64,000 nt of DNA from Escherichia coli (GCF_024502345.1 NZ_JALDNN010000001.1); one strand, 5' to 3'. Shown: positions 5,790-35,201, numbered from the stretch's first letter. Made by a program: numbers and translations. Notes: a model not told the origin generated them from the sequence alone.

Positions 5790-6229
5790 AAAGCCATGAC
5801 CTGAAGAAAGCGCTGTGTCAATGGACGGCGATGCTGGCCCTGGTGGTAAGCGGCGCGGTTTGGGCGGCTAATGGCGTCGATTTTAGCCAGTCGCCGGAAG
5901 TATCCGGGACGCAGGAAGGGGCCATTCGGATGCCAAAAGAGCAGGATCGGATGCCGCTGAACTATGTGAATCAGCCGCCAATGATCCCGCATAGCGTTGA
6001 AGGTTATCAGGTAACGACCAATACCAACCGCTGCTTGCAGTGCCACGGTGTCGAAAGCTATCGCACCACTGGCGCGCCGCGTATCAGTCCTACTCACTTT
6101 ATGGACAGCGACGGCAAAGTGGGCGCGGAAGTGGCTCCGCGTCGTTATTTCTGTCTGCAATGTCACGTACCGCAGGCCGATACCGCGCCAATCGTGGGGA
6201 ATACCTTTACCCCATCAAATACCGAATGA
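5786..6229 (+). CDS. napB: dihaem cytochrome c NapB, with C-terminus altered by a novel joint
   Basis: [13 protein letters not shown]...; two CxxCH haem motifs; the last residues (..TPSNTE) differ from the recalled K-12 C-terminus (..TPSKGYGK). Confidence 0.9.
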   Translation: MKSHDLKKALCQWTAMLALVVSGAVWAANGVDFSQSPEVSGTQEGAIRMPKEQDRMPLNYVNQPPMIPHSVEGYQVTTNTNRCLQCHGVESYRTTGAPRISPTHFMDSDGKVGAEVAPRRYFCLQCHVPQADTAPIVGNTFTPSNTE

Positions 6230-6671
6230 AGTGGACTATCGAAAATTGCAGGAACTGTTCACGCGGATCGCCATCGATAAACATATTCAGCAAAAGCTTG
6301 AACATCCTCACCACCAGCTGGTGGCTACCTACCAGTCATTAAACCGCAAGTATTCAGAATTGCTGGAGGAATACAAAATCCTTCGGCGCTGCTTCTCTGT
6401 TTCCGCTCTTGTTCCTTATACCGACGTATGGACACATAAGCCTGTTCAGTTTTATCCAGGCAAACATCCATGCGAAAAACCTGCCGACATGCTGAAACAG
6501 ATCATTAGCGCCAGCAGCAGACCGGGGGATATCGTTGCCGATTTCTTTATGGGCTCTGGTTCAACTGTGAAAGCTGCAATAGAACTTGGCCGTCGGGCGA
6601 TCGGCGTAGAACTGGAGGCAGACAGGTTTATACAGACCACCGAAGAGGTGGAAAAACTGAAAAAATCATAA
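6220..6671 (+). pseudogene. 5'-truncated N6-adenine/N4-cytosine DNA methyltransferase (C-terminal fragment only)
   Basis: Translation contains HPCEKP then DIVADFFMGSGSTVKAAIELGRRAIGVE (SAM-binding FxGxG block of beta-class MTases); no start codon and no N-terminal DPPY catalytic motif; reading frame begins at the napB joint. Confidence 0.7.
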
Positions 6672-6816
6672 CGATCACCACGCTCCCCCGTTGCTGTGGT
6701 GATCACCATCTTCAGGCACCGGGAATCATCCTTAATTTTTACTTGAACATAAGAGCCCGGTTGCCTGATCCCCTTCAATCACACACAGCGCCATCCGAAC
6801 TATCGGAGGTGAGGCT

Positions 6817-7095
6817 ATGACCAGAATGAGCACCATTTACAGCAGACTTTCATATGGATCAGGAACCACGCTTGCCGGCTGCGGTGTATCAGCGAAGGCA
6901 TATGCCGAAACAGCTAAAACAGCAAAAGAGGTGTCCTGGATGTTGGCCGACAGAATTGCAGGGTTAAGCCTGAGTGACTGGGCAATTATTGTCGGTATCG
7001 CATGCACAGTTATCACCTGTGCAGTGAACTGGTATTACAGGAAAAAGGAAAGGGAGGACCGGCTTAATGGCAATGTCACCAAAGCAGAAGAATAA
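6817..7095 (+). CDS. phage holin
   Basis: 92 aa, hydrophobic helix WAIIVGIACTVITCAVNWYY, charged C-terminus, immediately upstream of endolysin. Confidence 0.7.
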   Translation: MTRMSTIYSRLSYGSGTTLAGCGVSAKAYAETAKTAKEVSWMLADRIAGLSLSDWAIIVGIACTVITCAVNWYYRKKEREDRLNGNVTKAEE

Positions 7096-7615
7096 ACTGA
7101 GCGCAGCGGTCGTTGGGTTAATTCTTGCCGGGGCTTCCGCACCCGTGATTCTCGATCAGTTTCTGGATGAGAAAGAGGGTAACAGCACAACAGCGTACAA
7201 GGACGGCTCTGGTATATGGACCATTTGTCGTGGCGCTACGATGGTTGATGGCAAGCCAGTAGTTCAGGGCATGAAGCTGTCTGCTGAGAAATGTTCCAAG
7301 GTGAACGCCATAGAACGCGACAAGGCGCTGGCGTGGGTCGAGCGAAACATCAAGGTGCCACTGACCGAACCACAGAAAGCCGGGATCGCGTCTTTCTGCC
7401 CATATAACATCGGTCCCGGAAAATGTTTCCCATCTACGTTCTATAAGCGAATAAATGCTGGCGACCGTGAAGGTGCCTGTGAAGCGATCCGCTGGTGGAT
7501 AAAAGACGGTGGTCGCGATTGTCGTCTGACCAAAGGGCAGAAGAACGGTTGCTATGGTCAGGTTGAACGGCGAGACCAGGAAAGCGCGTTGACGTGCTGG
7601 GGGATAGACCAGTGA
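7067..7615 (+). CDS. phage endolysin, lysozyme family with N-terminal signal-anchor (SAR-type)
   Basis: 182 aa; N-terminal hydrophobic [18 protein letters not shown] followed by lysozyme-like body; position between holin and Rz. Confidence 0.8.
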
Positions 7616-8127
7616 GCCTGCGCTATCAGTTCATTGTTATTTTGTTGCTGGTGGCCGTTGCATTCTTCGCGGGTAGTGTATGGAGCAGCCGCGGTTGGGA
7701 AAAGAAGTGGGCCGAGCGTGACAGCGTAGAATCATCGCAAACAGCGAACGCACAGACCGCCGCTCGCATGATTGAACAAGGGCGTATTATTGCCCGTGAT
7801 GAGGCTGTAAAAGATGCACAAGCACAAGCCGCTAAATCCGCTGCCACTGCTGCTGGCCTGTCTGCCACTGTTAACCAGCTGCGTACCGAAGCAACAAAGC
7901 TTGCCACTCGCCTGGACGCCGCAAAGCACACCGCAGATCTTGCCACTGCCGTCAGAAGCAAAACAGCCGGAGCCGACGCCGCAGTGCTCGCCGACATGCT
8001 CGGACGCCTTGCAGAAGAAGCTCGATATTATGCTGAGCGATCTGACGAAAGCTACCGGGCAGGAATGACGTGTGAGCGCATTTACGACTCAGTGAGGCAG
8101 TCAAACAACAACAGGGTTAGAAGATGA
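7594..8127 (+). CDS. i-spanin (Rz-like); true start may be GTG at 7612
   Basis: N-terminal TM ([15 protein letters not shown]), coiled-coil Ala/Gln-rich periplasmic domain; Rz1 nested in +1 frame. Confidence 0.8.
7814..8068 (+). CDS. o-spanin (Rz1-like lipoprotein) nested inside Rz
   Basis: Signal peptide with lipobox LLTSC, proline-rich mature region; entirely embedded in Rz in another frame. Confidence 0.75.
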
Positions 8128-8354
8128 ACGCAGAAAACCTAAGTGAAGCGTATTACCTCAATAACGATATAAAAGAACTACAACTTCAGAAAAGCATACT
8201 GGAAAGTGGTGCCGGACTTGGTGTGACAATCCAGTCTACCTATCAGGATAACGCCTTTCTTGATGCCATACGCCCGCATGCAGTGGCTGAACTTGATCGC
8301 CGTATTGTGGAGAAGAAAAAAAACCTCTCCACTCTGGGTGTTACATTCTCTTAA
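8124..8354 (+). CDS. hypothetical protein, start overlaps Rz stop (ATGA)
   Basis: 76 aa ORF translationally coupled to Rz; no recognisable motif. Confidence 0.45.
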
Positions 8355-8701
8355 ATGAGAACAACAATAAAAGGTTATGTCTGCTTTGCCACATTCTGAG
8401 AGTATGAGTTTTATTTGGTAGTCAATCAGTTACTTTATTGGTTTGCTTTCCGATGGAAGATAGATGTTTCCACAGAAGGGGCAAATTAACGTTATATTGT
8501 TTTTTATTCTCGACAGACTGTGCTTTGACTGGCGGGAGCAATGAGGACAAGTACTTTTCACATGGCGTAAAGTACGCATCTTGATATCTTTGAGTATCGA
8601 CATGTTGATTGTCCTGGTGGGCGGTTAACAACCATACACCACATGTTGGCTAATAGCTTCTTTTATAACCGTTACGATGTAGTCGTTAGCCATAATCAAT
8701 C

Positions 8702-8727
8702 AAGCCTCGCAATAGCGGGGCTTTTTA
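8702..8727 (+). terminator. possible hairpin plus T-run
   Basis: agcctcgc-aata-gcggggct followed by ttttt. Confidence 0.35.
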
Positions 8728-8738
8728 ACAACTGAGGA

Positions 8739-8942
8739 ATGAGCATTACAGTAGTTCTTACAGCTAAGCAGATTGAAGACCTGGCTGCCTTCGCAAAAGA
8801 AGATGGCCAGCCACAATATACCATCACTACCGGAACAATCCCTGAGTTCGAAGCGGATGATGGCGAGGTTATCCCTGAGTACACCGGGCTGATTGCCTAT
8901 TCCGAGTCGCTAGAGCATAGCGTTCTACAGCTCGATAACTAA
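8739..8942 (+). CDS. hypothetical small acidic protein
   Basis: 67 aa, Asp/Glu-rich, SD-like gaggaa upstream; a degenerate copy of its 3' end recurs at 10.8-10.96 kb. Confidence 0.5.
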   Translation: MSITVVLTAKQIEDLAAFAKEDGQPQYTITTGTIPEFEADDGEVIPEYTGLIAYSESLEHSVLQLDN

Positions 8943-8969
8943 CGAATCAACATAACTTTCCATCCGCCA

Positions 8970-9135
8970 TGACACCACAATGCTCGTAGACATGCCAGGA
9001 AGCCTGGCAGAAGAAGCTCGATACCATGCTGAACGCGCTGATGAAAACTACCGAGCAGGAATGACATGTGAGCGGATTTATGAGTCCGTAAAAATACTAA
9101 CAATGAACCGTAGAGGAAAAATAATAGCTCTATAA
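8970..9135 (+). pseudogene. duplicated 3' fragment of the Rz gene
   Basis: 9006-9092 is an imperfect direct repeat of 8011-8097 (gcagaagaagctcgata..gcaggaatgac.tgtgagcg..attta); would encode ..[27 protein letters not shown].. Confidence 0.7.
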
Positions 9136-9514
9136 ATTAAGATGTTGACGGTTTTCGTGGATAAATTTGTGAATTTTTACTATGAAGGAAATACGACTCT
9201 TCCTTGAGTCAAAATCCCTGACAACTTAGGGTGATAGATAAAGGTCTTACGCAGCATGACATAATTTTCGATTTAAGCTATTTAAATTAATTTTTAAGAT
9301 CAAAACCCACTGAGATTTACTTACAAAACTAAACCTTGCTATGTCTGGTTAATCATGCGTTAATGAATGTCTGGTTTGTAACGAATTTATCTGAAGCAGT
9401 CGCTGTAATAATTTTATTCCTTGTTCCTGTTGAGATTTCCTTGTTAGCTTTTCTCTCTGATAAATTTTTTTCGGACCATTCTGCCCAAGGGCTTACTCAA
9501 TAAAGGTAATGTTT

Positions 9515-9727
9515 ATGTCTAATAAAATGACTGGTTTAGTTAAATGGTTTAATCCTGAAAAAGGTTTTGGTTTTATCACTCCAAAAGATGGTAGTAAAGA
9601 TGTGTTTGTTCACTTCTCTGCTATCCAGAGTAATGATTTCAAGACGTTGAATGAGAATCAGGAAGTTGAATTTAGTGTTGAACAGGGACCTAAAGGCCCC
9701 ACGGCAGTTAATGTCGTGGCTGTATAA
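9515..9727 (+). CDS. cold-shock protein (CspA family), prophage-borne
   Basis: 70 aa [23 protein letters not shown]...; long AT-rich 5' leader typical of csp genes. Confidence 0.9.
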
Positions 9728-9931
9728 GGTAACTGTTATTACTAATAATATTCACTTCAGATGTCCGTGTTGCCACGGATCTCAGTACCGAACGTCAAAC
9801 TTTGATGTTACTGAAAAAAATCCTTTCGGAGCAAAATGTATTTTTTGCAAATCAACAATGATTACATTTGATAATATTGCACTGTACATTCGTTCTGGTC
9901 AGTCTTCGTTAGAATTCAGAAAATAAATTTC

Positions 9932-9955
9932 AGGCTCCTTATGGAGCCTTTTTTG
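9932..9955 (+). terminator. rho-independent terminator
   Basis: aggctcc-ttat-ggagcct followed by tttttt. Confidence 0.7.
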
Positions 9956-9999
9956 TATGCTGAACCGACAATCTCTGTAAGAGACATCACGGTAAAATT

Positions 10000-10230
10000 A
10001 TGAAAAAAGTCATCGTTTTTTTTAATGCAGAACCAGCAGTTGTTGTAACCGTAATGAAAGGTATTACTACGATAATGCGTGAGTTTCCCAATGGGGAAAA
10101 AGCACACCTACCCGTGATGTCAGCGGGATTTCCATCTCTGACAGGAGACCATAAAATAGTTTATGTAGCCTCTGATCGTGATGTCAGTTCAGAAGAGATC
10201 CTCGAGGCAGCCTCGAAGCTTTTGAAATGA
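10000..10230 (+). CDS. hypothetical protein
   Basis: 76 aa ORF; weak RBS; no recognisable motif. Confidence 0.35.
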   Translation: MKKVIVFFNAEPAVVVTVMKGITTIMREFPNGEKAHLPVMSAGFPSLTGDHKIVYVASDRDVSSEEILEAASKLLK

Positions 10231-10434
10231 GATCTGGTTGTTTCGTGACCGACCCGGATTTTAGTACAGTGGTTTGTGTGGTCGCGAGCTCTTTTGCATG
10301 AAGATTGTACTGCAAACTATTGATAATTGAGTCTTTCTATTCTATCTTTTAAACATATCAGCGCTTATACAAGTGCTCTACGGGGAATGTAACATGCCTG
10401 GCGTTGATACGTTAGAGATCAAGAGAGGTAAACA

Positions 10435-10608
10435 ATGAACGTCGAAGATTTAAAAAGAAAAACTGAAGCGGATATTTCTGAATTCATCACAAAAAAAATT
10501 ATTGAACTCAAAAAAAAGACAGGAAAAGAAGTTTCCGATATCCAGTTTAATGCTCGTGAAAAAATGACTGGGCTTGAAAGCTATGATATTAAAATCACAT
10601 TAATCTAA
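10435..10608 (+). CDS. GnsA/GnsB-family small protein
   Basis: 57 aa MNVEDLKRKTEADISEFITKKIIELKKKTGKEVSDIQFNAREKMTGLESYDIKITLI; strong similarity to recalled GnsA/GnsB; below the 60-aa cutoff of the ORF track. Confidence 0.8.
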   Translation: MNVEDLKRKTEADISEFITKKIIELKKKTGKEVSDIQFNAREKMTGLESYDIKITLI

Positions 10609-10632
10609 TTGTTATAAGACTCAGTTCGAGTG

Positions 10633-10667
10633 AAAAAGCATTATCTTGAAAGGTAATGCTTTTTTAT
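10633..10667 (+). terminator. rho-independent terminator after gns-like gene
   Basis: aaagcatta-tcttgaaagg-taatgcttt followed by tttatttc. Confidence 0.7.
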
Positions 10668-10760
10668 TTCTGTCATAAAATTTAGAACGTTGTCAAAGCC
10701 TTCACTTCTAACCACAGATTTTCTGCTTACCTTTTAACGGGTCCTCCTTGACGATTCTGA

Positions 10761-10964
10761 CCATCGAGGGGCAGCAGCGGCGCGGGATTTGGAGCATTTT
10801 TGATTCTTCACGCAACCATTTCAGCATTTGATGCTGATGACGGAACACTATCCCCGAATACACTGGGTTTGTTGCATTCTCTGATTCAAAAGAACACGGT
10901 GTGCTTCAACTTGGCTGAGCAGGCATTACAGCAGACATTCACTGAGTGCCTGCGACAAAGTTAA
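10761..10964 (+). pseudogene. start-less 3' remnant related to the 8739-8942 gene
   Basis: Frame encodes ..FDADDGTLSPNTLGLL.. resembling ..FEADDGEVIPEYTGLI.. of the 8739 ORF; no in-frame start codon after the upstream stop. Confidence 0.45.
10921..10958 (+). repeat. ~35-bp boundary repeat, copy 1
   Basis: cattacagcagacattcactgagtgcctgcgacaa; near-identical copy at 11311-11343. Confidence 0.6.
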
Positions 10965-11049
10965 ATGGCATCAAGCATGCGATGATGATTGATTAATAAT
11001 TGAGCTATGCATGGTATAATAAGCCCCATTCATTGAAAGGTTAACCACC

Positions 11050-11214
11050 ATGTCATTTTTCGATTATGCAATGCAGCGTGTTGGGCTTGCAGCCAATACG
11101 ACTGTCATGTGCCCGATATGCGGACATAAATCCACACACTCGACCACGAAAGTACGCCAACAACAGGCGTTACTTTGCCCTAAATGTAAATCGCTGTTTG
11201 TCATTCACAGATAA
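11050..11214 (+). CDS. small zinc-ribbon protein (CxxC...CxxC)
   Basis: 54 aa MSFFDYAMQRVGLAANTTVMCPICGH...LCPKCKSLFVIHR; upstream -10 tataat at ~11015; two terminators downstream. Confidence 0.6.
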   Translation: MSFFDYAMQRVGLAANTTVMCPICGHKSTHSTTKVRQQQALLCPKCKSLFVIHR

Positions 11215-11232
11215 CATGCGACCTGCTGAATA

Positions 11233-11257
11233 TAACCGCCTACGGGCGGTTTTTTAT
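11233..11257 (+). terminator. rho-independent terminator
   Basis: accgcctacgggcggt followed by tttttt. Confidence 0.75.
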
Positions 11258-11268
11258 TGCCATCACAA

Positions 11269-11293
11269 AGGCCACTTTCGAGTGGCTTTTTTA
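11269..11293 (+). terminator. second rho-independent terminator
   Basis: gccactttcgagtggc followed by ttttttaa. Confidence 0.65.
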
Positions 11294-11310
11294 ATGGTCA
11301 TCACGACGGG

Positions 11311-11343
11311 TATTACAGCAGGAATTACTGAGTGCCTGCGATA
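11311..11343 (+). repeat. ~35-bp boundary repeat, copy 2
   Basis: tattacagcaggaattactgagtgcctgcgataat; matches 10921-10958. Confidence 0.6.
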
Positions 11344-11370
11344 ATGCTCAATATTTTTATCGGAGTGAAT

Positions 11371-11559
11371 ATGCCACCGCGCACACCGAAGGCCGGCCTG
11401 AAAGGGGCGATACAAAAAAGGGAAAAAATGAAAAGACATAAGCGAAATAAAAAAGCCACCACATCTGCAAATGTGATGGCTGGCATTCGGATTAATTCAG
11501 GTTGGCTGAATAAGTTAGCCGCAGATATTACTAAAATAATTAATGAAGCATGTCCCTAA
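11371..11559 (+). CDS. hypothetical small basic protein
   Basis: 62 aa from ATG with ggag SD; Lys/Arg-rich; no known motif. Confidence 0.3.
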   Translation: MPPRTPKAGLKGAIQKREKMKRHKRNKKATTSANVMAGIRINSGWLNKLAADITKIINEACP

Positions 11560-11956
11560 TCTCATCTGAGATATCTCTTGGCCCTGCAGGCTGAGGCGCA
11601 ACCAACCGGGTCGGAAGTCTCTCGAAGAAACCACCACCACCATGATGATGAAAACCCCGGTTATTTTTATAACTATTGAAGTTACTGTCGGTAGTGAGAA
11701 GGATGTTGCACTGGTGCGAGCAGTCAACAACAACGACATCACCTGCATTCAGGTGCATTCGTTTGTGAAGAAATTGCATAAGTCTCCTTATCAAGAGGCA
11801 ATCAGCACTCCTCTCAAGGCTGGTACGCCAACGTCCCACCGCTGACGGGCTGAGCCATTACCTTACCCAGACTCAACGATAAGTAACATCCTGATATTCA
11901 GACAGTAACTGTAATCGATAATGCTGAAGAATAGGCAGTAAATACAGGTGACTGAT

Positions 11957-13252: not shown

Positions 13253-13402
13253 TGTCCCATGTCCCACCTCTGGCGATCATTACGGACACCTCGCCAGCTC
13301 TGGCTATTCCAGTTTATTCCAGTGGGACATTCTGGTGGGACATGGCAAAAATGTCCCAGGCGAATGTCCCACCCCAGAAAATGTCCCAGGTGATGTCCCA
13401 TG
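13253..13402. repeat. Cluster of eight TGTCCCA/TGGGACA heptamer repeats immediately upstream of terminase small subunit
   Basis: Copies at 13253, 13260, 13323(rc), 13336(rc), 13352, 13365, 13382, 13394; the last overlaps the terS ATG. Confidence 0.7.
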
Positions 13403-13969
13403 ACCACGATGAACCAGAGTCAGTACGCACAACATTCAGGTGTGGATCGCAAAACAATTGGTCGGTGGATTAAAGCCGGGCGCTTCATTGTGATGGACGG
13501 AGACCTGATTGACGTAGAGGCCAGCGATGCGGCATTGAAGAAAAACCGCGATGGCAAAGACCCGCGCGCCTCGAACGCGAAGAAAAAGAAAACTCCCGTC
13601 GTTAGCGATAACGATGATGACGGTGATGAAATCAATAAAACTGTCCGCCAGATAATGCTCACTGAAGGGGCAGATCTTTCGAGAGAGGAAGCGGGACGTA
13701 TCCGCGAGAATTACATGGCCCTGCAGGCAAAGCTGCAGTATGAAAAAGACAGCGGCCAGCTTATTGAGCTGACAGCAGCCGAGGAGGTTTTATTCAACGC
13801 CTTTCGCCAACAGCGTGATGCCTGGCTTAACTGGCCGTCCAGGGTGGCGCCGCTAATGGCTGCTGATCTGGATGTACCGGCGGACAGGATGACAGAGGTG
13901 CTGATTGAACATGTCCACAAACACATCTCAGTCCTCGGAGAGCCAGAGTTTAACCCGGCAGAAGATTGA
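13400..13969 (+). CDS. terminase small subunit (Nu1-like, N-terminal HTH)
   Basis: 189 aa; N-terminal ..VDRKTIGRWIKAGRF.. winged-helix pattern as in lambda Nu1; followed by large terminase. Confidence 0.7.
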   Translation: MTTMNQSQYAQHSGVDRKTIGRWIKAGRFIVMDGDLIDVEASDAALKKNRDGKDPRASNAKKKKTPVVSDNDDDGDEINKTVRQIMLTEGADLSREEAGRIRENYMALQAKLQYEKDSGQLIELTAAEEVLFNAFRQQRDAWLNWPSRVAPLMAADLDVPADRMTEVLIEHVHKHISVLGEPEFNPAED

Positions 13970-16034
13970 GCGTCTTGAATTAAGCGTCCGCAAAGGCTGG
14001 ACACCCCCGCCGCGTATCAGTGTGCCGCAGTGGGCAGATGACTATCGTAAGCTGGCAAAAGAGGCTGGGAGCACTTCGGGAAACTGGGAAACATCGACGG
14101 TAGAAATTGCCCGCGGACCGATGCTTGCCGCGACGGAGTCCGGGGTTCATATCATCACTGTAATGTGCTGTACCCAGTTGATGAAGACAGCACTGCTGGA
14201 AAACCTTTTTGGCTATTTTGCCCACCTCGATCCTTGTCCGATACTGCTGCTGCAGCCGAAAGAAGAAGCCGCTGAACAGTTTTCGAAAGAGCGTATTAGC
14301 CCGCTGGTAAGGGTGACGCCGGTACTGCGTAAAATCATCGGTGATTCGAAACAGAAAAGCTCGAAAGAAACCATTCTTTACAAGGCATTCACTGGCGGAT
14401 TTCTGGCGCTGGCGGGTGCTGGTAGCCCTGATAACCTTGCGCGTCGTCCGATTCGTGTCCTGCTGGCGGATGAAGTGGACAAGTACCCGATAACCCGCGA
14501 AGGCGATCCAATTGCGCTGGCCGAAGAGCGTACAGCGACATTTGGCCTGACCTGGCTGTCTGTACGCGCCTGTTCGCCGACGGTGGAGGATGAGAGCCGC
14601 ATTGCTGACAGCTACGCCGACTCCGATCAGCGCCGGGCATCTGTGGTTTGCCCGCACTGTGGCCACCGCCAGTTCCCCGACTTTTTCAAACACGTTCAGT
14701 GGCCGAAAGAGGGAGATAAACACCTGACTAAATCGGCGATGCTCTATTGCGAATGCTGTGGTAGTGGCTGGTCCGAAGGACAGCGCCTCAGAGCTCTGCA
14801 CACTATTCGATGGCATCAGACGCGCCCATTTGAGTGCTGCGGGGAGCGGCACTCACCGCTGATGGATTATGACCTTGCCTGGCGGGCGGCAGACGAGGGC
14901 AGCGTTGAAAAGGTCTGGCAATGGTCAGAGTCGGAACGGCATGCGGTCTATCGCGCAATCTGCCCCTCCTGTGGAAAGGAGGCAGTCGATAACCACCACG
15001 CGGGGTACCAGGCATCCAAGCTTTTCAGCCCCTGGCAAAAAGATAAGCCGTCGGATATTGCGAAAAAATATATCGATGCGAAGGGCGATCCGGATAAGGA
15101 ACAGGCGTGGTGGAATACCCAGATGGGGCTTCCGCACCGACCTAATCATGGGAAACAGCTCCCTGTTGATGTTCTGCTGGCGCGCCGGGAAATATTTCCG
15201 GCCGTCGTTCCGGACGGGGTGGCATTGTTAACAGCTGGAGTTGATACCCAGGACGATCGCTTCGAAATTACGATCACCGGCTGGGGGAGAGATGAAGAAT
15301 CGTGGTCGGTCGCGCATGACGTTATTTATGGTGACCTTGAGACGGAAGAACCCTGGAAGCGACTGGATGCATACCTGAAACAGATCTGGCGACGTGGTGA
15401 CGGGCGCGGCCTGAATATCATGGCAACGTGCATGGACTCCGGTGGCCACCATACGCAGAAGGTATACGAATTCGCCAAAGAGCGTCTTGGCCGTCGTGTC
15501 TGGGCAATTAAGGGGGAGTCTGCACAGGGAGGTAAACGCAATCCTGTCTGGCCGACCAAACGACCATCATCGAAAAGCAAAGCCAGTTTCCGCCCTGTCA
15601 TTCTGGGGGTTAACTCAGCGAAAGACGTGATACGCGGTCGCCTGCATCTTGAGCCACCCAAACCTGGCGCCGCCGCTGCGGGTTATATGCATTTTCCTGA
15701 CGATCGCGATCTCGGGTACTTCAATCAGCTGCTGGCGGAGCGACTGGTTTACAAAGTCATTTCCGGGCAGCGGTACAGTATCTGGGAAGCAATACCAGGA
15801 CGAGCTAACGAAGCGCTTGACTGCCTCGTTTACAGCTATGCCGCGCTGTGCGGTCTCAAACATATGGGGTTAAAACTCAACGTCCGGGCCGCCAACCTCG
15901 AAGCCGATCCGGATAAGTTCCTGCCAGCGCCAGTTGGACAGGAAGAAAAAATCAATTACGAGCTGCCGGGTGCGGTTATTGAAGAACCAGCGCCGGTCAA
16001 ACGTAAGCGAATATCGCAACTCCTGCCGAAATAA
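13905..16034 (+). CDS. terminase large subunit (lambda gpA-like)
   Basis: 709 aa, position and size; overlaps terS 3' end as in lambda Nu1/A. Confidence 0.8.
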   Translation: MNMSTNTSQSSESQSLTRQKIERLELSVRKGWTPPPRISVPQWADDYRKLAKEAGSTSGNWETSTVEIARGPMLAATESGVHIITVMCCTQLMKTALLENLFGYFAHLDPCPILLLQPKEEAAEQFSKERISPLVRVTPVLRKIIGDSKQKSSKETILYKAFTGGFLALAGAGSPDNLARRPIRVLLADEVDKYPITREGDPIALAEERTATFGLTWLSVRACSPTVEDESRIADSYADSDQRRASVVCPHCGHRQFPDFFKHVQWPKEGDKHLTKSAMLYCECCGSGWSEGQRLRALHTIRWHQTRPFECCGERHSPLMDYDLAWRAADEGSVEKVWQWSESERHAVYRAICPSCGKEAVDNHHAGYQASKLFSPWQKDKPSDIAKKYIDAKGDPDKEQAWWNTQMGLPHRPNHGKQLPVDVLLARREIFPAVVPDGVALLTAGVDTQDDRFEITITGWGRDEESWSVAHDVIYGDLETEEPWKRLDAYLKQIWRRGDGRGLNIMATCMDSGGHHTQKVYEFAKERLGRRVWAIKGESAQGGKRNPVWPTKRPSSKSKASFRPVILGVNSAKDVIRGRLHLEPPKPGAAAAGYMHFPDDRDLGYFNQLLAERLVYKVISGQRYSIWEAIPGRANEALDCLVYSYAALCGLKHMGLKLNVRAANLEADPDKFLPAPVGQEEKINYELPGAVIEEPAPVKRKRISQLLPK

Positions 16035-16042
16035 GGAAAATC

Positions 16043-16306
16043 ATGTTCAACCGGAACACCAGCCTGCTTGCCGGCGCAATGACTGACGATCAGCTCAGGG
16101 ATGCGCTTGCGAAAGCTCAGCAGGCGTACATTGATTTAGCAACCGGGAGCCACGGTGTTTCGTTTTCCTATACGCAGGGAGACGGGACGCGATCAGTGTC
16201 CTATCAGCAAAGCACCCTGGCTGATCTGCTGGCCCTGATTCAACTTCTGCAGGCGCAACTGGGGATTATCTCTCGTCCCCGGAAACCAGCGAGGTTTAGA
16301 TTCTGA
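16043..16306 (+). CDS. head-tail joining protein (gpW-like)
   Basis: 87 aa, position between terminase and portal, C-terminal ..RPRKPARFRF. Confidence 0.6.
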   Translation: MFNRNTSLLAGAMTDDQLRDALAKAQQAYIDLATGSHGVSFSYTQGDGTRSVSYQQSTLADLLALIQLLQAQLGIISRPRKPARFRF

Positions 16307-18806: not shown

Positions 18807-18807
18807 A

Positions 18808-22237: not shown

Positions 22238-22240
22238 TCC

Positions 22241-22438
22241 ATGTTTGTTAAGCCGAACAACGGGCTCAGCGTTCGCTGCCCCGTCAAGGGCATCCCATTG
22301 CCTAAAGAGGGTGCTGAAGTACCTGACAATATTTTCTGGCGTCGCCGTCTGAGCGATGGGGACGTGATCCTCTCTAAAAAGGATGAGGGCGCGCCAGAGA
22401 AACAATCATTACCTAAAAAAGCGGGAGAAAATGAATGA
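22241..22438 (+). CDS. small hypothetical tail-module protein
   Basis: 65 aa, overlaps sheath start. Confidence 0.45.
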   Translation: MFVKPNNGLSVRCPVKGIPLPKEGAEVPDNIFWRRRLSDGDVILSKKDEGAPEKQSLPKKAGENE

Positions 22439-23937: not shown

Positions 23938-23940
23938 ACG

Positions 23941-24312: not shown

Positions 24313-24313
24313 G

Positions 24314-24592
24314 ATGGCTGAGATTGAACGCGTTAAAACCATTCCATTAACCGTAGCGCTGGATGATGCTGCGGAGAAGACCACTTATACGCAGCTGGAG
24401 CTGAAAGCACCCACGCTAAGCCAGGCTGAGCAGTTTTACGAGAAACAGGCTGCGTCAACGTCGCTCGCGGCGATGCGCCTGCTTATTGCGCTGGTTTCCG
24501 GTACGCGTGAAAGCGTACTGCAGCCGATGGATTTTCTCGACTTCCGTAAGTGTGAGGAGTATCTGCTCAGTTTTTTGACCTGGAAGCCCTGA
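24314..24592 (+). CDS. tail assembly chaperone (short form)
   Basis: 92 aa, immediately upstream of tape measure; contains slippery heptamer near 3' end. Confidence 0.7.
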   Translation: MAEIERVKTIPLTVALDDAAEKTTYTQLELKAPTLSQAEQFYEKQAASTSLAAMRLLIALVSGTRESVLQPMDFLDFRKCEEYLLSFLTWKP

Positions 24593-24741
24593 CAACCTGG
24601 CAGGAAATGGCCGCTGACGTCACCTTCTATTTCCGCTGGTCTGAGGACAGGGCGTGGGGAATGACCCGCGCCCGGCTGAAATGGTGGGTGGCGCAGGCAT
24701 CCCGGATAAACAAGCTTAGGAAACCTGAAGACGATGAGTAA
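24314..24741 (+). CDS. tail assembly chaperone, -1 frameshifted long form
   Basis: Zero-frame ORF to 24577 joined to -1 frame extension ..TWQEMAADVTFYFRWSEDRAWGMTRARLKWWVAQASRINKLRKPEDDE. Confidence 0.55.
24571..24577 (+). promoter_or_regulatory. Programmed -1 ribosomal frameshift slippery site T TTT TTG
   Basis: ttttttg with TTT TTG in the zero frame; the -1 frame stays open to 24741, overlapping the tape-measure start. Confidence 0.65.
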
Positions 24742-26662: not shown

Positions 26663-26693
26663 TCACTGTCGTCATTTCGTTAAGGAAGAAGTT

Positions 26694-26942
26694 ATGAATG
26701 AAAAAGTTTTTGGAGCAAAAGCCATTTAGACTCCAAAGGTTTTTGCGCTTGTTTACCTGGTAATTGGCATTTTCCTCGTTTTTTCTGTTGTCTCAATGAA
26801 TTTCACGGCGATTACGATATCGGTGGTAAGTGCATTGCTTTTACGTGTGCTTTATGAGTTCCTAATGAACTCATTCAAGGCGACTGAGCATCTTTACAGG
26901 ATCGCCGAATCTCTTGACCGTAATGGATCCAGCGATAAATAG
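26694..26942 (+). pseudogene. small membrane protein ORF interrupted by an in-frame amber (TAG) codon at 26727-26729
   Basis: SD aaggaag then ATG; 11 codons, TAG, then the same frame stays open for 70 codons encoding a hydrophobic helix (VFALVYLVIGIFLVFSVVS...); internal ATG at 26796 has no SD. Confidence 0.5.
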
Positions 26943-26965
26943 ATAAGTCATTTCAGTGCATATGT

Positions 26966-26993
26966 AAACCGCCGACATGGCGGTTTTTTTATT
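26966..26993 (+). terminator. rho-independent terminator
   Basis: aaccgccgacatggcggtt followed by ttttttt. Confidence 0.8.
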
Positions 26994-27002
26994 TCCGGAG
27001 GC

Positions 27003-28409
27003 GTGATGCCGTCAATTATCCAGGACGCAATAACTTCTCTTTTGGGGGGAGATACCAGCGATGACTGGCAGGGGCAGTTACGGCCCAGCTCATTCAGAGG
27101 TGTGCCATTTGCAATTGTTGCTGAGGAAGGGAGCCACGGCCGACGCCAGGCGGTACATGAATATCCCTACCGTGATACAGCCTGGATAGAGGATATCGGG
27201 CGGGCAACACGGCGATTTGTTATTCGCGGTTTCTTGATCCAGAACAGCCAGGTTTACGGCGGCGGCGATGCTATCACGCAGCGCCAGTCACTGATTGAAG
27301 CCTGTGAACAAAAAGGTAGCGGTACGCTTGTCCATCCGACACTGGGCGAATTAACGGTTTCCATCCCTGAGAATGGTTTGCGTATTTCCGGTTCGATGGA
27401 GAACGGGCGAGTATTTGAATTTACCCTGATGGCAATTGAATCAGGGCTTAAAGTGTTTGCTGTCACGGGCAGTACCGTTGCAGGCGCCACGGTGAAAACC
27501 AACTATCTGAAACTGGTCAGCACTGCTGTGCTGAGCACGATTGCCAGAGTTAAGAGTGAAATCCGCGGTGTCACACAGGCTATAAACACCATCAGAGGCA
27601 CGGTCACGTTCTGGACTAACATGGTTGACAGCACCATCAGTCAGGTCACGAATCTCAGCAATGTCCTGAACTCCACGTTCGGGAATACCCGGTACGGACG
27701 TTACAGTAAAGGCTCTGTGGGCGGTAGTTCCTCTGCTGTTGCTGGCAAATCGTCAGTTGCTGATGTGGATGATGAGAGAGCACTGGCTGACAAGGTAACA
27801 GCCCAGTCGGTAATGGACCGGAAAAATGTTACCGACAGGTCGAGCCAGCTTAGCAGCTCCAACACACCTGATGAGTTTGTCCAGGGCGTCGCCGACGTGG
27901 TAAACGCAATTCTTAACAGCGCCGGCAGCGTTAATGACCGAATCACAGCGCTGGAAAAACTGGCTAATTCAATCAGCACGGAGTACCAGCAGTCCGACAG
28001 CAGCAAAGCGATTTCGGCGACCATGAACACGCTGATTGTTGTGCTATGTACTGGTGCCATGACCAGTGCCGCTGCGGACTCCAGACCAGCCAGTACAGAC
28101 GAGGCAGAAGAGTTAACTCAACGAGTTTCTGTGCAACTTGATACGGCGCTGGTTCTGGCTGGAGACCGCGCGGACGATGATATGTATAACGCGCTTCTCG
28201 CCGTCAGATCGGCATTCCTTTCTACGATGAGTGAGCGTGCTTCTGGTCTGAGCGAGCTTCTGCAGGTTACTACCGCTCAGCCGCTTCCGGCGCTGACGCT
28301 GGCAAACCGATTATACCAGGATGCCACCCGTGCAGATGAACTGGTACAGGAAGCGCGCGTACCGCATCCGGCGTTTATGCCGACAACCATGAAGGTACTG
28401 AGGCAATGA
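27003..28409 (+). CDS. Mu gpN-like DNA circulation protein
   Basis: 468 aa; N-terminal ..SSFRGVPFAIV.. region; gene order. Confidence 0.7.
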   Translation: MMPSIIQDAITSLLGGDTSDDWQGQLRPSSFRGVPFAIVAEEGSHGRRQAVHEYPYRDTAWIEDIGRATRRFVIRGFLIQNSQVYGGGDAITQRQSLIEACEQKGSGTLVHPTLGELTVSIPENGLRISGSMENGRVFEFTLMAIESGLKVFAVTGSTVAGATVKTNYLKLVSTAVLSTIARVKSEIRGVTQAINTIRGTVTFWTNMVDSTISQVTNLSNVLNSTFGNTRYGRYSKGSVGGSSSAVAGKSSVADVDDERALADKVTAQSVMDRKNVTDRSSQLSSSNTPDEFVQGVADVVNAILNSAGSVNDRITALEKLANSISTEYQQSDSSKAISATMNTLIVVLCTGAMTSAAADSRPASTDEAEELTQRVSVQLDTALVLAGDRADDDMYNALLAVRSAFLSTMSERASGLSELLQVTTAQPLPALTLANRLYQDATRADELVQEARVPHPAFMPTTMKVLRQ

Positions 28410-29491
28410 ATGCAGACAGCGATCTGGATGTTGTTTCTTTGACGGTCGACGGCAAAATCATCGAGGGGTGGGATTCTGTCCGGGTAACGCGGGGTATTGA
28501 GCGTTTTCCCTCTGATTTCGATCTTGGGCTAATGGATTACTTCCCTGGCAACGAAGATCGTCAACTCGTTGAAGAGGGAATGTCTTGTGAAGTTCGTATC
28601 GGAGATGATCTGACACTGACGGGATATGTTGATGACTGGGAACCCGCACTATCGCGCTCCCGCCATGAGGTCCGCGCCACGGGCAGGAGCAGATGTCAGG
28701 ACCTGGTGGATTGCTCAGCCGAGTGGCCTAACAACGTCATCAATGCCAGTAATGCGCTTGAAATTGCTTCTCGCCTGGCATCCTACTACGGCATCACCGT
28801 AACCACGGATGTTGATGAACTTGTGAAGGTACCCCAGTTCACTCTGAACTGGGGTGAGTCTCCGCAAGAAGTCATCGATCGGGTGGCCAGATGGTCTGCT
28901 CTGCTTTACTACGATCAGCCCGATGGAAACCTGTTACTGACCCGGGTGGGAACACGTCGTGCGGCAAGTGGGATAGCCGAAGGGGTAAATGTCGAGCAGG
29001 CATACTACCGCAAATCGATGGCTGACAGGTTTTCAGATTATGTCGGTGTATCAATGAGCGTTTCTCCAATTGCAGGGTATTCGCCTGATACGGCCTATGA
29101 CGCTGTGACTCTGGCAACGGCGAGAGATCCGGAGGCCGCCCGCATGCGGTACCGAAAACATATATCGATTGTGGAAAGTACCCTGATGGCTACTCAACAG
29201 GCACAAAGTGCGATCGACTGGGAAATGAACCGGCGGTACGGACGTTCAAAACAGCTCTCGGTAACCATCGATTCCTGGCGGGATAAAGACGGGAAACTGT
29301 GGGAACCAAACACATTGATCCCCGTTGATCTTCCCACCTTACGGTTGCCGAAGACTGAATTGCTACTGGCAGAAGTCACCTATATGCGCGATGACTACGG
29401 CACCCATGCACGCATGACGCTGATGCCGCCTGAAGCATTCTCCGTTCAGCCATATGCCTTCTACCAGAACCTGGCGGGATTCAATACATGA
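28406..29491 (+). CDS. Mu gpP-like tail/baseplate protein
   Basis: 361 aa; gene order. Confidence 0.7.
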   Translation: MNADSDLDVVSLTVDGKIIEGWDSVRVTRGIERFPSDFDLGLMDYFPGNEDRQLVEEGMSCEVRIGDDLTLTGYVDDWEPALSRSRHEVRATGRSRCQDLVDCSAEWPNNVINASNALEIASRLASYYGITVTTDVDELVKVPQFTLNWGESPQEVIDRVARWSALLYYDQPDGNLLLTRVGTRRAASGIAEGVNVEQAYYRKSMADRFSDYVGVSMSVSPIAGYSPDTAYDAVTLATARDPEAARMRYRKHISIVESTLMATQQAQSAIDWEMNRRYGRSKQLSVTIDSWRDKDGKLWEPNTLIPVDLPTLRLPKTELLLAEVTYMRDDYGTHARMTLMPPEAFSVQPYAFYQNLAGFNT

Positions 29492-30072
29492 AGCAACTAT
29501 TTAAACATGCAGCGACCAGGATCGCCGGCATGCTGGGGATTGGCCGGATCACGGCTATGAAAGATGGTGGGGTGGTGCAGTCTATCCAGTACCAGACTCC
29601 GCTGGAGGTGGCCAGCGCTCCGCGGATGGCAGAATTTGGCTTTTCATCCGGCCTGCCGTCAGGGACTGACGTGGTTCTGGCTTTTATTGGCGGTGATCGT
29701 TCCAGCGCGGTGGTAATTGCGTCCAACCATCAGGGGTTCCGTCATACAGGCCTGAAAGCGGGCGAAACGGTCATGTATAACCAGTGGGGCCTTAATATTC
29801 TCCTGACGGAGAAGGGGATCTTCCTGGATGCAAAGGGCCAGAATGTTGAGGTCAATAACGCCACTAACGTGACCATCAATGCCAGCCAGGGGATCCTTGC
29901 AAATACCCCGATCCTGAGGTGCACGGGTGACATTGTTGATAACTGTGAAACCAATACCCGAACACTGAAAGAGCTGCGGGATGCACATAATGACCATGAT
30001 CATGTGGTTAAAAATGCCCAGAGTGGCAATGACAATATCCGCAGCCAAAAAACAGAGGATCAGGTGACATGA
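29488..30072 (+). CDS. baseplate assembly/spike protein (gpV-like)
   Basis: 194 aa; gene order. Confidence 0.65.
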   Translation: MKQLFKHAATRIAGMLGIGRITAMKDGGVVQSIQYQTPLEVASAPRMAEFGFSSGLPSGTDVVLAFIGGDRSSAVVIASNHQGFRHTGLKAGETVMYNQWGLNILLTEKGIFLDAKGQNVEVNNATNVTINASQGILANTPILRCTGDIVDNCETNTRTLKELRDAHNDHDHVVKNAQSGNDNIRSQKTEDQVT

Positions 30073-30506
30073 GTGACATCGCTTCATTCTGGAATGTGGA
30101 TGAGATGTTTGCTGACTGGCAGAAAGGGCTGGGTGAACTCACCACGGGGAACGATTTACAGACTGCAATACTGGACAGCCTGTTTACCGACAGGCTGGCG
30201 CGCGCTGACGATGATTATGAGGATAGCGATCGCCGCGGCTGGTGGGGGGATTCCGGGGAGGAATCCCAACTGGGATCCCGGCTGTGGCTGCTACGGCGGA
30301 AAAAACTGACCCCGGATGTAGCAAAAAAAGCGGAGGAATACTCGAGTGAAGCGCTCAACTGGTTAAAGGTTGATGGCGTTGTCAGCGAGGTTATTCCTGT
30401 TGCAAGGATCGTCCTGCCTGACCGGCTCAATCTCATTATCCGCTATCAGGCACCGGGGAAGGACTGGCAGGAATTCAGGTTTTACTGGATATGGGAGCAA
30501 CGTTAA
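30069..30506 (+). CDS. baseplate protein (Mu gp46 / gpW-like)
   Basis: 145 aa; gene order. Confidence 0.65.
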   Translation: MSDIASFWNVDEMFADWQKGLGELTTGNDLQTAILDSLFTDRLARADDDYEDSDRRGWWGDSGEESQLGSRLWLLRRKKLTPDVAKKAEEYSSEALNWLKVDGVVSEVIPVARIVLPDRLNLIIRYQAPGKDWQEFRFYWIWEQR

Positions 30507-30507
30507 T

Positions 30508-31650
30508 ATGCCGTTTAAACGACCGACGCTGAGCGAACTCCGCGACGGAAACCGGAAATTTATGCAGGCGGAGCTTGAGGATGTTGGTGCGCTCCTGCGC
30601 TTCGCGAACCTGAAGGTACTGGCTGACATGGATGCGGGGATGGGGCATCTGCATTACGCCTACCTTGACTATATTGCCCTGCAGACAAACCCGTTTACCT
30701 CTACCGATGAGTATCTCGCCGGGTGGATGGCCCTTAAGCAGGTATTCAGAAAACCAGCTGCAGCGGCGAAGTCGCCTGCGGTACAGGCTAGTGGCAGTGT
30801 TGACTGTATTATCCCTGTTGGCTCGATCATTAACCGCGGGGACGGATACCAGTACCGGACGGATGCAGATCTTAAAATTCAGGCAGATGGATTTGGTATC
30901 GTCGCGGTGACGGCCATACTGCCGGATATTACCAGTGATGTAACGGGTGGAGGCGCGCGCGGTAACGCTGATGCCGGGACCATAATGACCCTGGACGCGA
31001 ATATTGCTGGCGTGGATCCACAGGTAACGTTACTGTCCGCTGCGACCGGCGGAGCCGATATTGAAACGGAAGAGGATTTTCGCAGTCGTGGCTTGCTGGC
31101 ATGGCAGAATCCGCCTCAGGGTGGAAGCGACGCCGATTATAAAAAATGGGCGCTTGAGGTTTCGGGCGTCACCCGCGCGTGGGTAAAGCGGCGTCTGAAC
31201 GGGGCCGGGACCGTTGGCGTGTATATCATGTGTGATCGGAATGACAATGGTGGGTTTCCGGTCGGTACCGACGGAATATCCCAACTTGAGGACTGGGGGG
31301 CTGTTAAAGCCACCGGAGACCAGCTCGCTGTCGCCGACCACATCTATCCGCAGCAGACAGACACTGCCATTGTTTTCGTATGTTCCCCGATCAAGAAAGT
31401 CATCAATATTGAAATCTCTGGGATCAAAAATGCCGACAGCACCACAGTTCAGGGGATAAAAGACGCGCTGACGGCGCTGTTTTTTGATGAAGCTAACCCT
31501 GATGGTTCCGGGAAAGTTTACCTCTCTGATATTAACGGGAGTATCGGCGGTGTTAGCGGCACGACGGGCTATATTCTTAACTCTCCGACGGCCAATATCA
31601 CCTTTGCTGTTGGCGAAATTCCGGTGCTTGGCGGGGTGAATTTTGTATGA
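30508..31650 (+). CDS. baseplate J-like protein (Mu gp47-like)
   Basis: 380 aa; gene order. Confidence 0.7.
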   Translation: MPFKRPTLSELRDGNRKFMQAELEDVGALLRFANLKVLADMDAGMGHLHYAYLDYIALQTNPFTSTDEYLAGWMALKQVFRKPAAAAKSPAVQASGSVDCIIPVGSIINRGDGYQYRTDADLKIQADGFGIVAVTAILPDITSDVTGGGARGNADAGTIMTLDANIAGVDPQVTLLSAATGGADIETEEDFRSRGLLAWQNPPQGGSDADYKKWALEVSGVTRAWVKRRLNGAGTVGVYIMCDRNDNGGFPVGTDGISQLEDWGAVKATGDQLAVADHIYPQQTDTAIVFVCSPIKKVINIEISGIKNADSTTVQGIKDALTALFFDEANPDGSGKVYLSDINGSIGGVSGTTGYILNSPTANITFAVGEIPVLGGVNFV

Positions 31651-32240
31651 GCCTCTTTTCAAAAAATGATTATGCCGGTGCGCTTGGTGCGCTGCTACCG
31701 ACGGGCAGGGCGTGGCCCCGGTCGCAAAGAACGGTACAGGCTGCGGTATTACGGGCACTGGGCAGCGCGTTTCAGCGTTCTGACAACGATGCGCAAAGCC
31801 TGATTACTGGTGCTTTTCCCCCTACAGCGACGGTAATGTTGTCAGAATGGGAAAGCTCTCTGGGGTTACCAGATGATTGTGCGATTGGTGAATCCGGTGG
31901 CGTCAGCGATCGCCAGCGCGCCGTGGTGGCAAAGTTAATCAGCACCGGCGGCCTGAACCGCGATTATTACATCCGGGTGGCTGCAGCTCTTGGTTATACC
32001 ATCACTATCACACAGTTCCGGCCCGCTATGAGTGGCATGTCAGTATGCGGTGATGCGCTTAACGGTGACGAGTGGCCATTTACCTGGCGGATAAATGCGC
32101 CACAAACAACGATCAAGTATTCGCTTGCTGGCGCGTCCTACTGCGGAGATCCGCTCGCATCGTGGGGCAATAAACAACTGGAGTGTTCAATCAACAAAAT
32201 TGCCCCATCCCATCTGAACATCATTTTCAATTATTCATAA
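31647..32240 (+). CDS. tail protein of the YmfQ / Mu gp48 family
   Basis: 197 aa, position before tail fibre; resembles e14 YmfQ by recall. Confidence 0.65.
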   Translation: MSLFSKNDYAGALGALLPTGRAWPRSQRTVQAAVLRALGSAFQRSDNDAQSLITGAFPPTATVMLSEWESSLGLPDDCAIGESGGVSDRQRAVVAKLISTGGLNRDYYIRVAAALGYTITITQFRPAMSGMSVCGDALNGDEWPFTWRINAPQTTIKYSLAGASYCGDPLASWGNKQLECSINKIAPSHLNIIFNYS

Positions 32241-34167: not shown

Positions 34168-34173
34168 AAAGTA

Positions 34174-34437
34174 TTATCCATTTTGCCGGACAGTTGGAAA
34201 TTCAGACGTCAGCCACATGTCAGATTCATCAAACATTTCCTCCAGCATACGGTTCAGCTTTTCCCGATCACTTTTGCTGGCATCACTATTTAAGCCGTTC
34301 GCCTGCATCGGCTTTACCTTCACTTCGGCATCAGGAAAAATCTGGTGCACCCGCTTCGTTAGTTCAGCCAGGATGATCTCTCTGGCCCCTTGGAGTCCTT
34401 CAACATTTCGCTTGTCATAAACCAGTTCAACAAACAT
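34174..34437 (-). CDS. DinI-family protein
   Basis: 87 aa MFVELVYDK...AELTKRVHQIFPDAEVKVKP...ESDMWLTSE; SD gagagga; LexA box upstream. Confidence 0.8.
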   Translation of the reverse strand: MFVELVYDKRNVEGLQGAREIILAELTKRVHQIFPDAEVKVKPMQANGLNSDASKSDREKLNRMLEEMFDESDMWLTSEFPTVRQNG

Positions 34438-34493
34438 ACCGATCCTCTCATAAGTGAAAATTGCCTGTGCTTGATCTGTTTTTATAAAAATAC

Positions 34494-34513
34494 TACTGTA
34501 TATGCATACAGTC
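34494..34513. promoter_or_regulatory. LexA (SOS) box between divergent genes
   Basis: tactgtatatgcatacagtc fits CTGT-N8-ACAG; 57 bp upstream of dinI-like start and 24 bp upstream of the 34537 ORF. Confidence 0.8.
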
Positions 34514-34536
34514 AATAAGCGAGTGAGGGTGCGTTC

Positions 34537-34776
34537 ATGCCTCGTCAACCGGATATTCGTGCTGCTTTTATTGCGGCCATACAGCAAAACCCGAAGGGCT
34601 ATCTCTGCCTGCATACAGACAGATTCATCGCTGAACTGCAGGAGAGGCGCTGGCACTTCAGCCAGGCGGATGCAAATTCATGGATCGAACGATACCAGCC
34701 AGACTTCGCCGATAAGACGACAAACGGAAGTGAGAACCGATACTGGATCCTGCGTAACATGGGGAGGGTTTTCTAA
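34537..34776 (+). CDS. hypothetical protein, first gene of SOS-box-associated pair
   Basis: 79 aa; SD gagggtg; stop overlaps next start (TAATG). Confidence 0.65.
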   Translation: MPRQPDIRAAFIAAIQQNPKGYLCLHTDRFIAELQERRWHFSQADANSWIERYQPDFADKTTNGSENRYWILRNMGRVF

Positions 34777-35096
34777 TGGGGTTTCCATCGCCAGCCATGG
34801 ATTACCAGGAGCAGCGCATGACAATAGATGTTATCTGTGGTGTAGATAACAACTGCCGGGTTATTGAAACTTCATGCGGCTGGGCCGTTATAAACGTCAG
34901 TCTTAAGCCAGAAGGAGGGGATACGTTGCTGGTTAGCATGGACGGGAGAAACCAGTTCGTGAAGCTAATGGGCCACGCGCTGATCACTCAAGATGGTGAA
35001 GCGATAGAAGGGGAAGCTTTGAATGACGTAACGGTACACGGCGTTCTAACACATACACTTAACCAAGTTAAGGACGATAAATCGCCTGTAATGTAG
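34776..35096 (+). CDS. hypothetical protein, second gene of pair
   Basis: 106 aa; translationally coupled; followed by bidirectional terminator. Confidence 0.6.
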   Translation: MGFPSPAMDYQEQRMTIDVICGVDNNCRVIETSCGWAVINVSLKPEGGDTLLVSMDGRNQFVKLMGHALITQDGEAIEGEALNDVTVHGVLTHTLNQVKDDKSPVM

Positions 35097-35164
35097 CGTG
35101 TAAATGTCGGGGGTTATTCCCCCATTTTTCCCCAATGATTCCCCGTACAAATTTCAAACATAAA

Positions 35165-35190
35165 AAAACCAGCCGTAAGAGGCTGGTTTT
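35165..35190. terminator. bidirectional rho-independent terminator (proL and the 34776 gene)
   Basis: aaaaaaa-ccagcc-gtaaga-ggctgg-tttt. Confidence 0.8.
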
Positions 35191-35201
35191 CAATGTGTTT
35201 T

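Follow-up and report, generated by a model that had tools for sequence, protein, structure and literature searches.

The window analyzed here is a stretch of 64,000 nucleotides from Escherichia coli (NZ_JALDNN010000001.1, assembly GCF_024502345.1), in which a truncated nap operon adjoins the late genes of a prophage remnant located at the tRNA-Pro(GGG) gene proL. Based on a map of open reading frames (ORFs), a tRNA scan and genome comparison, the order was determined to be eco-napFDAGHB, phage block, attR/proL and yejM to fruA (Table 1). Over the left flank E. coli genomes match at 99.5-99.9% identity, and this match ends exactly at base 6219; host homology restarts at the phage attachment (att) core and proL, and prophage-free genomes align from about 35110, collinear through yejM-fruA. 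No insertion sequence (IS) elements were found within the window, which makes Shigella an unlikely source. An earlier note, made from the DNA alone, had described a late-gene block of about 29 kb beginning at 6200; its content was confirmed, while the start was moved to 6220 and the end was set at the att core (35198/35247). The modules named there (lysis, cargo, lambda-like head, Mu-like tail, e14-like fibre and pin) hold by Pfam, RefSeq and PHROG labels.

The locus contains a single clean junction, which was placed between bases 6219 and 6220 by three-way alignment of the window, the napB-napC region of E. coli ECONIH4 and the DNA methyltransferase gene of the Nissle prophage. On the host side the last five codons of napB are changed to three (KGYGK to NTE), the normal ending being ...TFTPSKGYGK and that of the window ...TFTPSNTE. 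The description of napFDAGHB as intact is thus true of napF, napD, napA, napG and napH, whose ORFs (164, 87, 828, 231 and 287 amino acids) have the lengths called in other E. coli, and fails at the napB C-terminus. The phage side begins at approximately codon 201 of a 350-amino-acid DNA methyltransferase gene, which normally lies just upstream of the holin gene, and the in-frame C-terminal piece matches residues 205-350 of the Nissle prophage enzyme at 145 of 146 residues (99%). At the join no IS element, repeat or scar was found, nor was any att-like or Pin-site-like sequence; the overlap is at most 1-3 bp, is ambiguous and offers no useful microhomology. On these grounds a site-specific or homologous origin of the deletion was rejected. 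Because the join has no IS, repeat, att-like site or meaningful microhomology, the junction is, on its sequence, the product of illegitimate (homology-independent) recombination. None of 5426 complete E. coli genomes, the panel used for all prevalence counts, spans the junction, and a 53-mer across it is absent from the GTDB species representatives. The NapB' fusion protein, taken with either of two possible starts, and the methyltransferase fragment gave no exact protein match; the event appears to be confined to one strain.

Using tblastn, NapC, CcmA-H, NarP and YejO were not found anywhere in the 64 kb, the sole match among these queries being a weak ABC-ATPase similarity of CcmA to yejF. 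The nap-ccm (aeg-46.5) operon is napFDAGHBC-ccmABCDEFGH, and in the window napB is not followed by contiguous napC and ccmA-H. The normal layout, napB-napC-ccmA-H-narP-yejO-proL region, is seen in E. coli strains ECONIH4 and SZQ1, and ten further E. coli contigs with the exact NapA allele of the window all read napB-napC-ccmA-H-narP, which bears out the expectation in the earlier note that napC, ccmABCDEFGH, narP and yejO belong in this interval. A 7.6-kb napC-ccm-narP query, scored as present at a coverage of at least 80% in one place, was found in 5418 of the complete genomes (99.85%), in one place each. Since the genes are contiguous in nearly all of these, their absence is derived, and by this comparison the loss is both rare and derived.

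The early phage functions are likewise missing. Two complete relatives supplied further tblastn queries, namely integrase, putative excisionase, repressor, Cro-like protein, replication protein and Q, none of which had a match in the 64 kb, and PHROG scans of the unassigned ORFs of the phage block gave no integration, regulation or replication function. The 49-bp att core is single-copy in the window, so attL has been lost, and comparison with the complete relatives placed Q and the region downstream of it inside the deleted interval. Functions for excision, immunity, replication and late activation, and the second att site, are thus gone from a block which is otherwise collinear with complete prophages at proL and lies at a recognised att site. 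This agrees with the statement in the note that integrase, excisionase, repressor and replication genes are absent and the element is locked in place; an integrase or repressor module contiguous with the block was looked for throughout the 64 kb and none was found, so that reading stands. With a single att core and with integrase, excisionase, repressor, replication gene and Q all lacking, the remnant is, judged by its gene content, immobile: it cannot excise, replicate or turn on its late operon via the normal Q-dependent route.

ECONIH4 (NZ_CP026399.1, ~4997404-5043083) carries a complete 45.7-kb prophage at the same site and with the same att core as the window; its attL/attR direct repeat of 49 bp, which overlaps the proL 3' end, defines that core. 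From the host side the order is napB, napC, ccmA-H, narP, yejO (split by IS2), attL, a helix-turn-helix/ImmA gene, integrase, early genes, LexA-family repressor, cro-like gene, replication and methylase genes, Q, the 350-amino-acid methyltransferase, holin, lysozyme, terminase, head, contractile tail, fibre, pin, dinI, attR and proL. Gene order is the same in the window, where the structural region with the head and tail genes (13176-32589, 19.4 kb) aligns gaplessly at 99.8% identity, and identity is 97.7% from pin through dinI to the right end. Unlike the window, ECONIH4 has lysis genes of only 77-79% identity, lacks the csp cargo cluster, has a 1.8-kb invertible fibre segment with two cassettes where the window has one, and retains napC, ccm, narP and yejO. 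Alignment of the window with this genome, of the kind suggested in the earlier note, defined the interval: BLAST breakpoints fall at composite positions 5451 and 37128, and approximately 31.7 kb is missing, consisting of about 12 kb of host DNA (napC-yejO, including the IS2 of that strain) and about 19.7 kb from the early part of the phage, attL included. The nap operon of ECONIH4 is separately damaged, napA being without its N-terminus beside an IS4321 transposase gene (ECONIH4 locus 233-3469).

One deletion in an ECONIH4-like ancestor probably explains the locus. The ancestor would have carried a complete temperate phage of about 45 kb, with a lambda-type head and a Mu-type contractile tail, in the proL 3' end, its integrase end adjoining yejO. 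A single illegitimate deletion of about 32 kb would then have fused the last napB codons to the middle of the late-region methyltransferase gene, taking with it napC, ccmABCDEFGH, narP, yejO and attL, together with the early half of the phage, that is, integrase, putative excisionase, repressor/cro, replication genes, and the antiterminator Q with the late promoter. The 29 kb left (lysis, cargo, head, tail, pin and dinI) would be immobile. The host genes are missing as the note had it, yet on this account they were not replaced by an insertion; a deletion spanning attL of a proL prophage removed them. The event is, by the state of the genes, recent, since nap and the late phage genes are undecayed and NapA matches a very common E. 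coli allele exactly at the protein level. The mechanism is well known and is ordinary genome decay; the loss itself is rare. Deletions that start within a prophage and run on into adjacent host sequence correspond, in the chromosome, to lambda dgal-type events.

Several points weigh against this account. The view is limited to 64 kb, and napC-ccm-narP might have been relocated elsewhere in the genome; the junction is that of the assembled sequence; two overlapping deletions would give the same junction, a single event being the most economical; and the loss of respiratory phenotype is inferred. Stepwise decay, in which an internal deletion of the early region was followed by an independent leftward deletion through attL, yejO-narP-ccm and napC, fits the habit of cryptic prophages, which usually erode in several steps, and a second deletion overlapping the first would leave one junction. 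It is nevertheless very unlikely, as there is one junction with no other scars, and the late genes are undamaged and match those of an intact relative at 99.8% identity, suggesting little elapsed time. Lower still stands a rearrangement in which the segment from napC to the early phage genes was inverted or translocated between prophages, or was excised and reinserted, and its genes work elsewhere. Lambdoid prophages often mediate rearrangements in E. coli and Shigella, and the remainder of the genome is unseen; against this, both the eco-nap flank and the flank from proL-yejM to fruA are in normal order and orientation, an inversion would leave one flank non-syntenic, and the junction has no shared homology to drive homologous exchange. 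Because both flanks are collinear, deletion is far likelier. An assembly artefact, in which napB and the methyltransferase gene were chimerically joined and the real genome has a complete locus and a complete prophage, is the least probable alternative: no other genome shares the junction, but misjoins usually occur at repeats, both sides of 6219/6220 are unique in the window and free of repeat or IS, and the breakpoints lie exactly where a single deletion of an ECONIH4-like locus would place them.

The single deletion would have had consequences for the host. NapC is needed as a quinol dehydrogenase, the quinol-oxidising partner of Nap, and the c-type cytochromes of E. coli which need Ccm comprise, besides NapB, NrfA/B, TorC/TorY and YhjA. 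With napC and ccm gone, napFDAGH and the altered napB should be functionally dead, and periplasmic nitrate reduction, formate-dependent nitrite reduction, Tor trimethylamine N-oxide respiration and NarP-dependent regulation should be lost. The reading in the earlier note, that Nap is without its quinol-oxidising partner and NapB without haem attachment, would follow from what is established about NapC and the Ccm system. According to the literature, E. coli has no pathway other than Ccm system I for maturing cytochromes c (PMC3601427, PMC10457321, PMC10937671). As this single system is gone, the strain is probably unable to make c-type cytochromes, and NapB and the others would stay apoproteins. 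The window would therefore represent a natural E. coli lineage probably without its only cytochrome c maturation system as well as NapC and NarP, that is, a natural Ccm-null background. The loss of the host genes would be collateral damage of the deletion that disarmed the neighbouring prophage, a clean and datable example of one event that both inactivated a prophage and cost the host some of its genes. In the literature nothing relevant was found on a proL prophage or on natural ccm or napC deletions in E. coli.

The junction also brings the nap operon next to the lysis genes. The holin start follows the napB stop (6229) at a distance of 588 nt, both genes being on one strand, and 2 nt beyond that stop there is a GTG start in frame with the methyltransferase. 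A consensus scan for a canonical intrinsic terminator between napB and holin gave nothing above the shuffled expectation. The 161-nt stretch 6660-6820, within which the spacer between methyltransferase and holin lies, has a predicted folding energy of -51.9 kcal/mol (z = -4.35 against shuffled sequences), forming two long hairpins with no U-tract, and may be a regulatory element of the late operon. It is conceivable, though unlikely, that the FNR- and nitrate-regulated nap operon is transcribed, from the FNR/NarP-controlled napF promoter, on through the lysis genes of the phage and its late operon of 28 kb. If so, anaerobic nitrate could trigger expression of holin and endolysin, or phage-like particles, from an element without Q, and the concurrent loss of the napF activator NarP could make the fusion tolerable.

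Strain SZQ1 carries the same proL integration module, early genes, methyltransferase-holin arrangement and pin-dinI right end. Its virion module (SZQ1 locus 25440-47783) is unlike that of the window: it is lambda-like, and its tail (gpG/T, tape measure, L, J) is non-contractile. Since SZQ1 shares the ends and early genes and has a non-contractile tail, the proL phage family is, on present comparisons, a mosaic in which the whole virion module has been swapped within one att-site family. The yejO gene of SZQ1 carries an internal stop.

No close isolated phage was identified by megablast, only short stretches of lysis genes being matched. The sheath protein is 72.5% identical to that of Citrobacter phage phiNP, 64% to that of Serratia phage BZS1 and approximately 41% to those of SfV, SfI and SfII. 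The nearest isolated phage by this measure, phiNP (OR565852.1), has nucleotide similarity in short stretches only and shares the architecture int-xis...repressor...replication...Q-dam (350 amino acids)-holin...Rz-cargo-terS-terL-W-portal-protease-decoration-capsid, followed by sheath-tube-tape measure-DNA circularization-baseplate-fibre-assembly gene-dinI-like. It is an active, inducible temperate myovirus of Citrobacter rodentium which integrates at ssrA (PMC6456863). The attachment site of the window element, in contrast, is the proL 3' end. By its genes the element is a truncated member of the phiNP/SfV-type group of lambdoid myoviruses with a proL integration module, and not the same phage.

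The earlier note had pointed to SfV, e14 and Qin for comparison, and none proved to be a close relative. SfV, SfI and SfII have the same Mu-type contractile tail module (DUF2635 beside the sheath gene) with no megablast similarity; SfV thus shares only the type of tail module. Its attachment site (thrW) and its O-antigen modification cargo presumably set it apart from the window element. Qin matches in the cargo, where the window genes resemble cspI, ynfN and ymcF at approximately 80% identity. The YmfQ, fibre and pin genes presumably resemble those of e14, going by RefSeq names and general knowledge of that element. As an object the element is to be grouped with the cryptic prophages of K-12, among them e14, Qin and Rac, which are likewise immobile remnants without one att site and without integration and regulation genes. 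Unlike these, it keeps the whole late operon (lysis, head and tail), and its deletion took a core respiratory cluster.

Names of the head and tail genes were taken from the RefSeq annotation of the ECONIH4 region and from Pfam labels on loci of 98.5-99.8% identity, and the late ORFs all keep the reference length. The 350-amino-acid methyltransferase gene is found just upstream of holin in ECONIH4, SZQ1, Nissle and phiNP alike; in the window it is a pseudogene. The lysis cassette is intact, and an embedded lipoprotein ORF with a signal peptide and Cys, by inference Rz1, lies within it. The cargo cluster, delimited by its GC profile, ORFs, Pfam labels on near-identical loci and PHROG matches, consists of small genes of low GC content (38-42%). 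Inside it, part of a second Rz gene and a pair of YnfU copies look like scars of past recombination between lysis modules of different phages. The lysis and cargo module from holin to GnsAB (6754-10965) is present at a coverage of at least 80% in none of the complete E. coli genomes. Many other NCBI genomes carry it at 95-99.5% identity, and a search with one phage cargo protein led to complete prophages only; among GTDB species representatives, an exact 47-mer of it (region 6754-13176) occurs only in a Citrobacter freundii metagenome-assembled genome. Citrobacter-type lysis and cargo genes joined to structural genes 99.8% identical to E. coli prophages suggest a phage lineage moving between both genera.

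The head module has the lambda-type gene set (GpA terminase, gpW, Portal_2, S49 protease, decoration protein and capsid E), and the tail module the Mu-type set (DUF2635, sheath, tube, DNA circularization protein and baseplate gp44-48 analogues). A serine invertase gene, pin, lies beside the fibre genes and from 33596 is 97.7% identical to a gene annotated as "recombinase family protein" in ECONIH4. Two inverted crossover sites flanking two cassettes were not found; there is one good site and a single fibre-tip and assembly cassette, a search for inverted repeats over the Pin segment (32566-33510) reported none, and the Pin switch is probably frozen.

Table 1. Features of the nap-proL locus in the 64-kb window
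Feature	Position	Strand	Basis or remark
eco	112-600	-	left flank
truncated nap operon	1007..6229	+	napF to napB'
napF	1007-1501	+	164 amino acids
napD	1491-1754	+	87 amino acids
napA	1751-4237	+	828 amino acids
napG	4244-4939	+	231 amino acids
napH	4926-5789	+	287 amino acids
napB'	5786-6229	+	147 amino acids
Deletion junction, napB 3' end to middle of phage DNA methyltransferase gene	6219..6220	.	three-way alignment
Phage block	6220-35198		all genes between of phage type
Methyltransferase 3' fragment (pseudogene)	6220..6671	+	about residues 201-350 of 350; Nissle prophage match
Lysis cassette	6817..8127	+	
Holin	6817-7095	+	Phage_holin_2 (Pfam label on 95-99.5% identical loci)
Lysozyme	7067-7615	+	Phage_lysozyme (as for holin)
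Rz-like spanin	7594-8127	+	DUF2514 (as for holin)
Embedded lipoprotein ORF, candidate Rz1	7814-8068	+	signal peptide and Cys sequence
Cargo cluster	8124..11900		
phrog_5415	8124-8354		PHROG match
YnfU	8430-8603	-	zinc-ribbon type
Rz fragment (second Rz gene)	8980-9135		51 codons
CspA-family	9509-9727		
YmcF-like	9739-9926		
ORF	10000-10230		76 amino acids
GnsAB	10435-10608		
YnfU, second copy	11050-11214		zinc-ribbon type
DUF1883	11543-11779	-	
Gene of uncertain role	11948-12595	+	phrog_1924, annotated minor tail protein
Gene with no assigned function	12606-13142	-	phrog_19473
Packaging and lambda-type head module	13400..21695	+	
terS	13400-13969	+	phrog_57
terL (GpA)	13911-16034	+	
gpW	16043-16306	+	
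Portal (Portal_2)	16306-17943	+	
S49 protease	17940-18806	+	
Gene	18808-19398	+	196 amino acids
Decoration protein	19398-19802	+	
Major capsid protein (capsid E)	19900-20949	+	
Two small head-completion genes	to 21695	+	
Mu/SfV-type contractile tail and baseplate module	21692..32240	+	
181-amino-acid gene, then DUF2635	from 21692	+	start of tail module
Sheath	22435-23937	+	
Tube	23941-24312	+	
Assembly protein	24314-24592	+	
Tape measure	24734-26662	+	
DNA circularization protein	27003-28409	+	
Baseplate genes	28406-31650	+	including gp46, gp47
YmfQ	31647-32240	+	
Tail fibre	32292-32924	+	
Pin-type crossover site	32566-32589		
Tail fibre assembly gene	32927-33352	+	
Degenerate partner crossover site	~33486-33509		17/24 match, by eye
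pin invertase	33577-34131	+	184 amino acids
DinI	34174-34437	-	
ORF	34538-34777		79 amino acids
ORF	34776-35096		106 amino acids, phrog_3469 "UmuD-like"
attR, 49-bp core	35199-35247		overlaps proL 3' end
tRNA-Pro(GGG) proL	35202-35278	-	ARAGORN

At the right end of the block the proL 3' end and a terminator-like hairpin (35165-35198) are both supplied by the phage. The phage hairpin takes the place of a similar host hairpin, which in ECONIH4 sits displaced at attL (ECONIH4 locus 17370-17404). To the right of proL lie yejM, yejL, yejK, rplY, radD, rsuA, bcr, yejG, yejFEBA, pdeN, mepS and lpxT, followed by yeiR, yeiQ, yeiP, setB and fruBKA, in the order and orientation normal for E. coli throughout. 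One complete E. coli genome (O125ac:H10) matches the left flank (1-6219) at up to 99.9% identity, and for the 25 kb of the right flank (39100-64000) the best complete-genome match is only 99.1%. By these identities the source lineage is either sparsely represented among complete genomes or mosaic across the nap-proL locus.

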